From positions 1 to 51,837 of the forward strand of contig JYFJ02002737.1 of assembly GCA_000934665.2 (NCBI GenBank): a stretch of 51,837 bases of DNA. Reading direction: 5' to 3'. Positions 35,701 through 41,738 of this stretch are shown here, piece by piece. The stretch is from Catajapyx aquilonaris. Lineage: Eukaryota. A program made the translations under genes and the position numbers. Numbering within the stretch: position 1 is the stretch's first letter; every line of letters starts with the position of its first letter. The notes under the pieces were generated by a model that ran no database searches, was not told where the DNA came from, and was given only the letters and a program-made list of their open reading frames with translations.

Positions 35701-38700
35701 ATGGTCACATGAGGACATTGAAAGGTTTCTTCTTCTTCTTTTCATTTTTACAGCAATGGTAGATGACACCCAAATTTTTTGCATCGTGCATTACTGTATT
35801 TTCTAAAACTTACTATTTAAATTGATTGACAACTCTTCAAGCAGGCAATTACAATGGTCCAATATTACTGCATGCACACAAATTTAACTAAGTAGAAGTT
35901 TTAGTGAATAATACTGTACATGAATCTGAAAATTGGGTATGACCTACAATTGGCGTAAACAATAAAATCAATATTACTACATTTCCCGCTTTGCCACTTG
36001 AAAACATTGAAAATATTACAAATTTGCTAGTTTCAAACCCTAATTTTCACAGCTCAAACCCAACAGAAAAAACCAAGTTTCCGGTTTGCTTCTGATAGTT
36101 AGGTACAAACTACATCATATTACAGTGCACAGCAGCAAAATTGATGTCCACAGGGATCCCATACCAGCAGTCACTACTTGTGTATCAGGCAGCCGAACTG
36201 TATCATGTGAGGACTTGCAGAGGTTTAAATATACTAACTACATAAGTTATTCATAAGTCTTGACCTTATTTTAAAATTTGCCATCCATACACTACACAAC
36301 AGATAGTTGTAATTCATATATGGAATGAATGAGACAGGATCAGAGTTTTTTTTACACACATTACAAATGGTCAATGCGTCCTCCTTTGGAGATGCGGCAC
36401 ACATCTAGCTGATACTCCATTTCGCCCCACACGCAAGCAAGCATGTCACGGTCAATCATTGTGAGTTTGTGACCGCCACGGTGATGCGGTGGCGAAGTTC
36501 CTGGACATTTGCAGGGAGTGGAGGCACAAAACCAGTGTCATTCACAAATCCCAGTAAGAAAAAGTCGCGAGTTAAATCGGGTGACCAGGGTTGCCCGATT
36601 TAACTCGCGACTTTTTCTTACTGGGATTTGTGAATGACACTGTCTTTGTGCCTCCACTGCGCGGCTGTCACAAACTCACAATGATTGACCGTGACATGCT
36701 TGCTTGCATGTGGGGTGAAATGGAGTATCGCCTAGATGTGTGCCGCATCTCCAAAGGAGGATGCATTGGCCACCGCATTAACACCTCATCATCGGGACTT
36801 GTGCATTTAATCCAACGTCGTGGTAGGTTTTGGTTCAAGTACCGTCGCACCTGGTTATGGAAATAAGGTGAAGCACCGTCTTGTTGAAAGAGGTAATACT
36901 CCATGTTCATTTATAATGTATGATTTATAATTTTCTAACTACTGCCTCCTAGCGGCACAGCAAGGCTACTACATGCGAGGGGTTTGCTGTAAAAAAAAAT
37001 CTGATCCTTTCTCGCTCTTTTGGTATATTAATTACAACTATCTGTTGTGTATGTATTTTTGGTGAATTTTTAAAATGAGGTCAAGACTTATGAATAATAC
37101 TGATAATAATAATAATACTTATGTATAATACTCCTGAAGAATACTCTTGAATAAGCAACCTGTACTAAAATACTGGACCCTTCCCAGCTTTTTATCCTTA
37201 CAGACATACATGCCAAATGAAATATTGTCTGCCTATCACAGAAAGCAAGACAACAAAAACCCGGAGCATTAACACTAGCCCACAACCCCTCCTCTACCAA
37301 CTTCCTCAACTGTAATAAAGGAAGTATTTGTTACTTACATACTCCCTTTTGGCAGCAGCCCAGTCAATTTGGCCATCATCATTGCCCCCTGTTGAGGCCC
37401 ACGACTCATCTGTGGGGTAAAGGTAGTCCCATATGAGCTTCTTGGCTGGCTCCAGGTTGTCAGGATTTCCTATCAGCTTCAGGTCGGTCTCACTGTGGTC
37501 CTCCTCCATTATCTGGTCAAGTGAAGCAATAGATCCCAATTAACACACTTATCATGACTGATGGCATCCAGTATCAAGTGTCAGATCACAATACAGTCAA
37601 CTCAGACACAAAAAACTTAAAGGGGACTGAACATCTGCATCTCAACAAATGTTTCCTATATCCAAATACACATGCCATGTATGGAAGTATGCTAGGACCA
37701 GCCTTTCCAGTTGGCTATAACTGAGTTTGCTTAAGACCGAGCATCTCATATTCGGAGTCCACTGTAATACATCTATTTTCACATACGTTGAAAAGCCACA
37801 ACTCCAGAGAACTTCAAAGTCCAACAGTTACGTTTCTAAAGTTTTTTGACCAACTAATTCTTGACAAAACTGAGTATCAGTGTTTCTCAAAATTCAGTCC
37901 ATGGCCCATGGGCGAGCTGTCAGGAGTTTCCCAAGGGGAAGGTAACTAATAAAAATCTATACCTCTTTATTGGTGTAATATCAGATAATGTCATTTTAAG
38001 TATATGAACAATAAGCCTCTTGCATACCACAACAGTTTGTAAAAATCTGGAAAACATTGCAGTCCACTACGAGACTAATATCAACAAATTCCTAACACTC
38101 CCCAGGTCTGTCAAATTTCCTCGTTACCATGAAAAAAGAACACCTTCATGTGACACTGACCTTGATCTTCACCTGTCCAGCTTCCTCAAGCTCCCTGATC
38201 TTGCAGCCACCTTTGCCAATAAGTTTCCCAACATCCTTTGTTGCAATTGGAAAAGTGAGGCTGTTCGTGGATGATGACGAGAATCCAGAGGATCCATCCT
38301 GTGCCCTACCTGGGAAGCCCTGATCCTGGGAGGAGCCATTGCTGCCATCCCGCCAGCCACCTCCTCCCCCACCACCATACTGTTGGTTGTACAGCAAGTC
38401 TTCAATCAGTTGCTTGGCCAAGGCACAAGCTTCCTCTGTGCCAAACATCTCGATGACATTGTCGCCCTTATTGATCTGAAAAGTAGCAAAAGCAGAATTT
38501 TAATAGAGAAGGCAGAAGCATCCCTTCAAAATCAAAGTGTCACAAATGCATATCTGTTGAAAAACAAACCAAAAAAAAAATCTCTTATTGGACAGGACAT
38601 AATTGAGCCAATGAAGCCAAAATATATGTTAATGCCTCTTGCCATAACTAATAACATTCACATCACTTGCTTTGAAAATCATTGATACTCCCATGTTGGG

Positions 38701-41700: not shown

Positions 41701-41738
41701 GTGCAACCTTCTTCATCCCAATCATCGTGGGAAGACAT
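20738..41738 (-). CDS. DDX43: DDX43/DDX53-family ATP-dependent DEAD-box RNA helicase with four N-terminal KH domains; 11 coding exons, 999 aa
   Basis: Coding exons: 41738-41418, 40046-39756, 39167-38760, 38475-38161, 37512-37339, 30674-30344, 26293-26128, 26054-25812, 25233-25086, 24370-24129, 21098-20738 (3000 nt, open frame). Motifs: Q motif [58 protein letters not shown] domain plus IDW motif plus [14 protein letters not shown] is typical of DDX43. Confidence 0.93.
21178..21877. mobile_element. Mariner-derived fold-back element with transposase C-terminal remnants
   Basis: Long imperfect inverted arms (ttggcacgtccagaaaataaggtc) with TA flanks. Translated fragments RFDNDEELQ...WL...YDIGIQ...[10 protein letters not shown] and DNARSHTA match mariner transposase motifs. 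Confidence 0.85.
21880..22446. mobile_element. Tc1/mariner-type fold-back MITE
   Basis: TA-CAGGGTGTTTC...GAAACACCCTG-TA, palindromic over nearly its whole length. Shares its left TA with the adjacent mariner element. Confidence 0.88.
22942..23184. mobile_element. Hairpin MITE with TA TSD
   Basis: TA-CAAGGTCAAAAGTTA...TAACTTTTGACCTTG-TA with near-perfect arms of about 90 bp. Confidence 0.85.
23251..23450 (+). mobile_element. tRNA-derived SINE (family also present at 44330-44582)
   Basis: A box TAGCCGAGATGG and B box GGTTCGATCCC (23308-23318). The body matches the minus-strand copy and is followed by an (AAT)n tract. Confidence 0.8.
23453..23617. repeat. (AAT)n and (AAC)n microsatellite
   Basis: Direct reading. 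Confidence 0.95.
25294..25790. mobile_element. Degenerate MITE
   Basis: Inverted termini tgcaaaatgggctgc and gcagcccattttgca. Confidence 0.45.
26383..26781. mobile_element. CACTA/EnSpm-like non-autonomous element
   Basis: CCCAAC(A/C)AACAC termini, 2-bp AA flanks, and many internal ggcac/gtgcc repeats. Confidence 0.6.
28234..29497 (+). mobile_element. Internally deleted hAT transposon with a transposase dimerisation-domain remnant
   Basis: CAGTGCC termini and perfect 8-bp TSD AGAGGAAG. After removing the inner insertion it encodes ...LQEVFPN...[34 protein letters not shown]... Confidence 0.9.
28508..29035. mobile_element. hAT (Charlie-like) non-autonomous element
   Basis: Perfect 16-bp TIR CAGTGGTTCTCAAACT and perfect 8-bp TSD CTCTATTG. 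Confidence 0.93.
30965..31118. mobile_element. PIF/Harbinger-like MITE
   Basis: Termini tgcgtttacatgcgag and ctcacatgtgaatgca; related to the copy at 2897. Confidence 0.5.
31702..32214. mobile_element. Non-autonomous DNA transposon, superfamily unassigned
   Basis: TIR of about 21 bp, GGG(T/C)CATTCCCAC(A/C)TGCCACA, with TA on both flanks. Confidence 0.7.
32870..32994. mobile_element. PIF/Harbinger MITE
   Basis: GGG(T/C)CGGTTTCACCGAGCT arms of about 39 bp with TAA TSD on both sides. Confidence 0.88.
33560..34260 (+). mobile_element. Highly degenerate mariner remnant
   Basis: Mariner-like QSKQWKH motif near 33890, with frameshifts. Boundaries are approximate. Confidence 0.4.
36240..37102. mobile_element. 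Tc1/mariner-superfamily rearranged element with transposase remnants
   Basis: Inverted termini ttattcataagtcttgacc. Fragments [27 protein letters not shown] (-) and [21 protein letters not shown]...YRLDVCR (+), with an internal inversion centred near 36590. Confidence 0.85.

Follow-up and report, generated by a model that had tools for sequence, protein, structure and literature searches.

Introduction

The closest described counterparts of the gene analysed here are the DEAD-box helicases DDX43 of Bombyx mori (PMC8025031) and DDX43/HAGE of human (PMC7949032), each with a type-I KH domain at the N-terminus and a DEAD-box core behind it. The core of the Bombyx protein binds the Ago3-containing PIWI-interacting RNA (piRNA)-induced silencing complex (Ago3-piRISC) and hydrolyses ATP, and its KH domain boosts the ATPase activity independently of KH RNA binding, while KH domain and core are both needed for maximal RNA binding; germline expression and the release of RNA from PIWI complexes are described for Bombyx DDX43 only (PMC8025031). 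The KH domain of human DDX43 binds single-stranded DNA (ssDNA) and single-stranded RNA (ssRNA) with a preference for pyrimidines; one KH domain covers ~4 nucleotides (nt), and both affinity and specificity increase when several are present (PMC7949032). In these accounts the published design of DDX43 is one KH domain plus a helicase, the KH domain both binding RNA and switching on the ATPase. No DDX43 with several KH domains was found in the full-text literature searched, the descriptions there being of single-KH proteins only. Here we analyse contig JYFJ02002737.1 of Catajapyx aquilonaris (GenBank assembly GCA_000934665.2), positions 1 to 51,837 of the forward strand (hereafter, the window), and describe the structure, the domains, the splicing of exons 1–5, and the orthology of a helicase gene on its minus strand. 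It is highly probable that a single gene with 12 or more exons spans 48651 to 20738 and is the pancrustacean orthologue of DDX43, which encodes a DEAD-box helicase of 999 amino acids (aa) with four type-I KH domains on RGG/G5F linkers ahead of the core, and that the KH array arose by an old internal tandem duplication of an intron-bearing KH unit.

Results

Gene structure and orthology of the helicase core

Splicing by coordinates joins 11 coding exons of the minus strand (Table 1) into a coding sequence of 3000 nt for the 999-aa protein, with AG at 10 of 10 internal acceptors and GT at 10 of 10 donors. The introns behind coding exons 1–5 are in phase 0 in every case, and coding exons 2–4 are symmetrical (phase 0-0). 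An in-frame TAG upstream of the ATG at 41738 fixes the start codon there, and the acceptor AG of the same exon lies at 41788–41787. Upstream of it is a non-coding first exon, to which a spliced contig (record 12, see below) leads: the 207 letters of this contig past 41787 have a single match in the window, from 48445, and on the minus strand the donor GTGAGT follows 48444. The interval 37339..41738 given for the gene by the initial annotation, which had been made from the sequence alone, thus holds for the KH part and falls short on both sides, since the coding sequence extends as far as 20738 and the non-coding first exon ends at 48444.

Pfam recognises a DEAD domain across exons 6–8, with the match in exon 6 below the cut-off, and Helicase_C in exons 10 and 11 (bit scores in Table 1). 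Motifs Q (SPIQAQ), I, Ia, Ib, II (DEAD), III (SAT), V, and VI were all read by eye as intact in the 999-aa translation, these calls resting on what we take to be the customary names and definitions of the helicase motifs. Exon 6 is 52–69% identical to insect proteins named DDX43, and the named top matches are DDX43. The core (aa 504–955) shows 66–74% identity to arthropod and insect DDX43, with values of 74% for Zootermopsis DDX43, 73% for Anabrus, and 70% for the tick Ornithodoros. A tree built from 51 cores, comprising arthropod and other DDX43 sequences without an explicit DDX5/DDX17 outgroup and drawn from collections with no close relative of Catajapyx, agrees with the species tree, in that the window core falls inside Pancrustacea (Shimodaira–Hasegawa-like approximate likelihood-ratio test (SH-aLRT), 93), where it branches after Artemia and lies outside the clade of winged insects (84). 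The assignment of the gene to the DDX43/DDX53 subfamily of DEAD-box helicases, with a core predicted to be intact, is supported by these comparisons, which agree with the DDX43-type helicase proposed initially; the proposed length of about 1000 aa was likewise reproduced.

Four KH domains split by an intron at one position

The initial annotation had placed four KH repeats before the DEAD core, with a phase-0 intron at the same position of each, and had suggested a search with Pfam KH_1 as a check. The KH peptides that it quoted are found in the minus-strand frames at the places it gave, and KH_1 matches the final 32–33 residues of each of exons 1–4 above the cut-off of 21.5 bits, with 32.3 bits in exon 1 (profile positions 2–34 of 66), 41.0 bits in exon 2 (2–33), 42.9 bits in exon 3 (2–34), and 38.9 bits in exon 4 (2–34). 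Because the per-exon matches all stop at profile position ~34, the intron position is identical in the four domains, each of which is cut at 34|35 by an intron in phase 0. In the spliced 999-aa product, a custom KH profile built from 22 Pfam-delimited KH domains of relatives aligns at full length to KH1 (aa 74–140, 47.5 bits), KH2 (aa 171–230, 35.3 bits), KH3 (aa 309–368, 63.0 bits), and KH4 (aa 414–474, 55.1 bits). The GXXG loop is kept in all four, as GRSG, GRQG, GKGG, and GKGG from KH1 to KH4. The linker between KH2 and KH3 contains an 18-nt tandem repeat (38880–39006, exon 3) that encodes G5F units.

Spliced contigs across the KH exons

Contigs of two sequencing runs were placed on positions 22000–41900, namely X1, a DNA run, and X5, a run of unstated kind. 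None of the runs found for this stretch is recorded as RNA. We take X5 to be derived from RNA because its contigs are spliced and exons are covered far deeper than introns; X5 contains 0.31 of the sampled words, a fraction close to that of the exons in the interval. Contig record 12 of X5 (1766 nt) runs through exons 5-4-3-2-1 into the 5' exon, with the borders where the model places them, and its joints 37512>38161, 38475>38760, 39167>39756, and 40046>41418 have CT..AC ends, that is, GT..AG on the minus strand. None of the X1 contigs has these joints, and the KH exons stand at single-copy depth in X1. The three middle KH exons (40046–39756, 39167–38760, and 38475–38161), whose inclusion in transcripts the initial annotation had singled out for checking, are therefore included in one spliced molecule. 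Farther downstream, the joint of exon 10 to exon 9 (24370>25086) is present in X5, and record 10 of X5 covers exon 6 with a 30-letter overhang. The gene is real and transcribed. A processed retrocopy in the DNA was also considered as the source of the X5 joints and was ruled out, since X1 is single-copy over the KH exons and has no such joint.

KH number in DDX43 relatives

Relatives were gathered by protein searches, their KH domains were counted with the custom profile, and key cases were checked with Pfam. The 165 relatives with a complete core have no N-terminal KH domain in 21 cases, one in 129 (3 of these with an extra C-terminal KH domain, the named cases being Culicoides), two in 12, and three in 3. 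Four were seen in none of the 165 among the matches listed, a weak absence in a sample biased by the search tools. Three KH_1 stretches were found with Pfam in Artemia franciscana P0283, Paralvinella palmiformis P0275, P0170, P0281, P0282, and Nymphon P0137, and two in Nymphon P0323, Mizuhopecten (with two zinc knuckles between its KH domains), Pomacea, Plakobranchus, Babylonia, Styela, Ciona, and the tick Dermacentor albipictus; a single stretch is present in the sampled winged insects and vertebrates. When exon 4 was used as a query of the protein collection, the single match among 214 candidates was the three-KH annelid protein, and with a three-KH segment as a query the next-best matches were FUBP/PSI proteins.

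Close counterparts of the window protein are Artemia P0283 (835 aa) and Paralvinella P0275 (940 aa), which have a DDX43-type core (65% and 66% identical, respectively) behind three tandem N-terminal KH_1 domains, in comparison with four in the window; the Artemia model begins within the first KH domain and may hold more. The putative DDX43 of the sea spider Nymphon striatum (P0323, P0137, and P0299) likewise represents an arthropod with more than one N-terminal KH domain (two in P0323, three in P0137, partial copies); its draft gene models disagree with one another. Outside insects and vertebrates, multiple KH domains are thus common, and no count above the four of the window protein was seen. 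The multi-KH helicase had initially been called lineage-specific; this is an overstatement, since relatives with two or three N-terminal KH domains come from a crustacean, a sea spider, a tick, molluscs, an annelid, and tunicates, and it is only the count of four that was seen in none of the 165 relatives. The novelty of the locus is reduced to the largest known array in a family with a variable number of KH domains.

Other arrangements were also observed among the relatives. The second KH domain of Culicoides P0029 and P0046 and of P0035 lies at the C-terminus, behind Helicase_C, and the C-terminal KH domain of Culicoides-type relatives is a different route to KH gain. In some DDX43 relatives (P0286 of Mizuhopecten, P0146, and several JGI proteins), CCHC zinc knuckles either separate the KH domains or follow them.

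History of the KH array

All four KH domains share the position and the phase of their intron, and the symmetrical exons each consist of the C-terminal half of one domain, a linker, and the N-terminal half of the following domain. Both features fit a tandem duplication of an intron-bearing unit at the DNA level, and the exon duplication proposed in the initial annotation appears sound on these grounds. A KH unit that already carried the mid-domain phase-0 intron would have been tandemly duplicated long ago, and from such a unit each internal exon would obtain its composition of back half, linker, and front half. A recent duplication is not borne out: the four copies are mutually 30–44% identical, no more than they are to KH domains of other species, and the direct repeats found in the DNA of 37300–41800 are runs of glycine codons, with none otherwise between the KH units. 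Low identity and the lack of DNA repeats beyond glycine codons indicate that the duplications are old, which these data fit without dating them. KH3 is the copy closest to the single insect KH domain (60% to Anabrus). In contrast to the window copies, KH2 and KH3 of Artemia are nearly identical, pointing to a recent duplication, and KH1 and KH2 of Nymphon are nearly identical as well and represent young copies.

A tree of KH domains (68 columns; 30 of 54 inner branches unresolved) cannot place KH1–KH3 of the window with this number of columns. It pairs copies of one and the same protein in Ciona (SH-aLRT, 90), Dermacentor albipictus (93), Mizuhopecten (88), Nymphon (94), Artemia (94), and P0223 (98). 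Such pairing, together with the near-identical copies of Artemia and Nymphon, favours repeated independent duplication, the alternative being concerted evolution. A metagenome contig (L001) that encodes P0170 has an uninterrupted frame of 709 codons and is hence uninformative on the intron position.

Alternative explanations and an alternative splice at the exon 5 donor

In a different history, the array is a retained ancient multi-KH state of early bilaterians or arthropods that was secondarily reduced to one KH domain in insects and vertebrates. The distribution agrees with it, as tunicates, molluscs, an annelid, chelicerates, and a branchiopod have two or three KH domains, against one in the sampled winged insects and vertebrates, and so does the divergence of the window copies, which differ from one another as much as from KH domains of other phyla; the within-protein pairing in six proteins (SH-aLRT, 88–98) speaks instead for repeated duplication or concerted evolution, and the KH tree, with more than half of its branches open, leaves KH1–KH3 of the window unplaced. 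We consider this history unlikely. As for the gene itself, several points weigh against a single DDX43 gene with four functional KH domains. The record of X5 does not state RNA. KH2 is the weakest copy, with a shortened variable loop and a Lys in place of the conserved Ile of GxxGxxI, and may on this account have lost RNA binding. The joint of exon 5 to exon 6 is absent among the joints listed for X5 (4 further joints lie outside the listing), and the word depths of the contigs with helicase exons are 6.2 and 12.1, as against 101.5 for the KH contig, although contig word depths cannot rank the parts of a gene. The missing joint and the unequal depths of the two halves, and also the 6.7-kb repeat-bearing intron between them, would be explained if the 999-aa model were a chimera of an upstream KH-only gene and a downstream KH-less helicase gene. 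Such a chimera is, however, most improbable. The conserved block IDW..Y|D..ERW..PP..K.FY, which is split by the border of exons 5 and 6, is unbroken in 8 of 8 aligned orthologues, exon 6 lacks a start of its own and follows immediately on an acceptor that overlaps with a stop codon, both borders are in phase 0, and the KH domain stands N-terminal to the core in a single protein in 144 of the 165 complete relatives. Moreover, the X5 depth of 33.7 in the bin 37272–37935 is met only when the overhang of the exon 6 contig (record 10) is placed on exon 5, as (175 × 101.5 + 31 × 142.4 + 30 × 6.2)/664 = 33.68, compared with 33.40 without it. From this overhang, the depth bookkeeping, and the protein alignment across the border, we infer that the joint of exons 5 and 6 is real.

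The donor of exon 5 is used in two ways, and the second bears on which protein the single DDX43 gene mainly produces. The joint 33875>37339 (CT..AC ends), which the initial annotation had missed, occurs in one X5 contig of depth 142.4 and in no X1 contig; it leads into a good acceptor (ttcattgcag|GTG TAA), adds one Val and a stop after residue 504, and gives a predicted 505-aa protein with four KH domains and no helicase. It is tentatively possible that this protein, and not the helicase, is the main product of the locus, in which case it would bind the RNAs of the full-length enzyme but not remodel them, serving as a scaffold or tether or competing with that enzyme; this would add to the reading of the locus as a four-KH helicase gene and is compatible with it. 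In its favour are, besides the joint, an AATAAA at 33705–33700, 170 nt downstream of the acceptor, the end of record 12 precisely at the exon 5 donor, where a fork in the assembly graph is expected, and the low depths of the helicase-exon contigs; the depths of 101.5 and 142.4 against 6.2 and 12.1 hint that the short form is abundant. An annelid gene model (P0276, 532 aa), with three KH_1 stretches and no helicase and akin to the DDX43 of its species, offers a parallel, though it is possibly truncated. On the other side, the joint is carried by a single contig with 31 letters on its shorter side, contig depth is a poor measure of expression, the contig reaches, by depth bookkeeping, ~66 nt past the acceptor and so stops short of the 3' end and the poly(A) site, and the product is a prediction from nucleic-acid contigs. 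A poison cassette joined onward to exon 6 was rejected, because the path of depth 142 cannot enter the exon 6 contig of depth 6.2, a weak argument in that it is based on depth. Of the features of the locus, this putative KH-only form deserves the most attention.

Two further observations concern this region and the annelid model. Immediately upstream of the alternative acceptor there is an unspliced X5 contig (33891–34268, 378 nt, depth 5.7), which may be pre-mRNA or a longer exon variant. P0276, from Paralvinella palmiformis, is 53–54% identical to the KH region of the three-KH DDX43 of the same species and has three or four KH domains; in one of them, unrelated sequence breaks the domain, which continues near the position of the intron in the window domains.

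Table 1. Exons of the helicase gene in the window, in the order of transcription
Feature	Coordinates	Strand	Content and borders
Non-coding first exon	48444..48651	-	3' end 48444 exact; 5' extent is a minimum
Coding exon 1	41418..41786	-	Coding 41738–41418; RGG-rich N-terminus; KH1 N-half 41519–41418
Coding exon 2	39756..40046	-	KH1 C-half 40046–39948, Gly-rich linker, KH2 N-half 39857–39756; AG/GT
Coding exon 3	38760..39167	-	KH2 C-half 39167–39090, (G5F)-type repeat linker, KH3 N-half 38855–38760; AG/GT
Coding exon 4	38161..38475	-	KH3 C-half 38475–38392, linker, KH4 N-half 38256–38161; AG/GT
Coding exon 5	37339..37512	-	KH4 C-half 37512–37426 and conserved IDW segment; AG/GT; donor used two ways
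Alternative exon	33810..33875	-	Acceptor 33875; GTG then TAA (33872–33870); 33810 end estimated from bin depths
Coding exon 6	30344..30674	-	Pre-core segment, Q motif, start of motif I; AG/GT; Pfam DEAD 14.3 bits (below cut-off)
Coding exon 7	26128..26293	-	DEAD domain, motifs I–Ia; AG/GT; Pfam DEAD 39.1 bits
Coding exon 8	25812..26054	-	DEAD domain with DEAD box; AG/GT; Pfam DEAD 66.2 bits
Coding exon 9	25086..25233	-	SAT motif and inter-domain segment; AG/GT
Coding exon 10	24129..24370	-	Helicase_C 59.1 bits; AG/GT
Coding exon 11	20738..21098	-	End of Helicase_C (27.8 bits), RGG-rich tail, stop codon 20740–20738; AG acceptor

Neighbouring genes and repeats

The 3' end of the helicase gene faces exons of an ESCO1/2-type acetyltransferase gene on the plus strand (15926–18046; zf-C2H2_3, 58.4 bits; Acetyltransf_13, 43.8 bits), the two genes being convergent. 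On the other side, two exons of a proteasome subunit gene (50357–51049, plus strand; PF00227, 60.8 and 62.1 bits) are divergent from the first exon of the helicase gene. The segment 48001–50000, between the proteasome exons and the first exon of the helicase gene, is the most GC-rich of the window (0.524), and it is possible that the two genes share a promoter region. Repeats of very high copy number lie in introns at 22664–23991 and 32624–33287, with summed X1 depths of 46,000–52,000 and 11,565, respectively, compared with 20–40 in unique parts, and an (AAT)n microsatellite spans 23453–23595. In intron 5, two inverted decayed frames with near-identical peptides and one further frame occupy 36361–36910 on both strands; they may be remnants of a mariner/Tc1 transposase, although the two frames searched with Pfam matched no family. 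A search for tRNA genes in 20000–49000 found none.

Discussion

By analogy with the DDX43 proteins of Bombyx and human, the core of the window protein would hydrolyse ATP and release or unwind RNA, and its KH domains would stimulate the core and recognise short segments of single-stranded nucleic acid. With flexible RGG/G5F linkers between them, the four KH domains should provide, by avidity, a higher affinity and a longer footprint on single-stranded RNA beside a remodelling core, while the KH-only form would bind RNA without remodelling it. Any germline or piRNA role, like these biochemical roles, is ascribed to the protein by the same analogy, and it is its orthology that suggests a germline function of the gene. 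In a broader view, the KH array of DDX43 could be evolutionarily unstable, repeatedly expanded in invertebrates (from one to four domains, with the window as the largest case) and here also released alone as the 505-aa, RGG-/FG-rich, ATPase-less protein, perhaps as the dominant transcript, to act as a multivalent RNA scaffold or helicase antagonist in germ granules; we regard this combined proposal as rather doubtful.

The natural series from one to four KH domains provides material for examining how KH number tunes affinity, footprint, and processivity, and allows one to ask which copy has the ATPase-stimulating role. The helicase-less KH isoform, if real, would be a regulatory layer undescribed for DDX43. 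In comparison with the single-KH proteins of Bombyx and human, as described in the two reports (PMC8025031 and PMC7949032), the window protein shares with DDX43 orthologues the conserved IDW..ERW..K.FY segment between KH domain and core, and differs in its four KH domains, its long Gly-rich RGG/G5F linkers, and the splice form that drops the helicase. The KSRP/FUBP and IMP/IGF2BP proteins, which have four KH domains and no helicase, share a working principle with it, in that tandem KH domains serve for combinatorial, high-affinity binding of single-stranded RNA, according to PMC7949032; without a DEAD core, they are not kin of the window helicase. Altogether, the locus represents a change in domain number within a known family and not a new kind of system.

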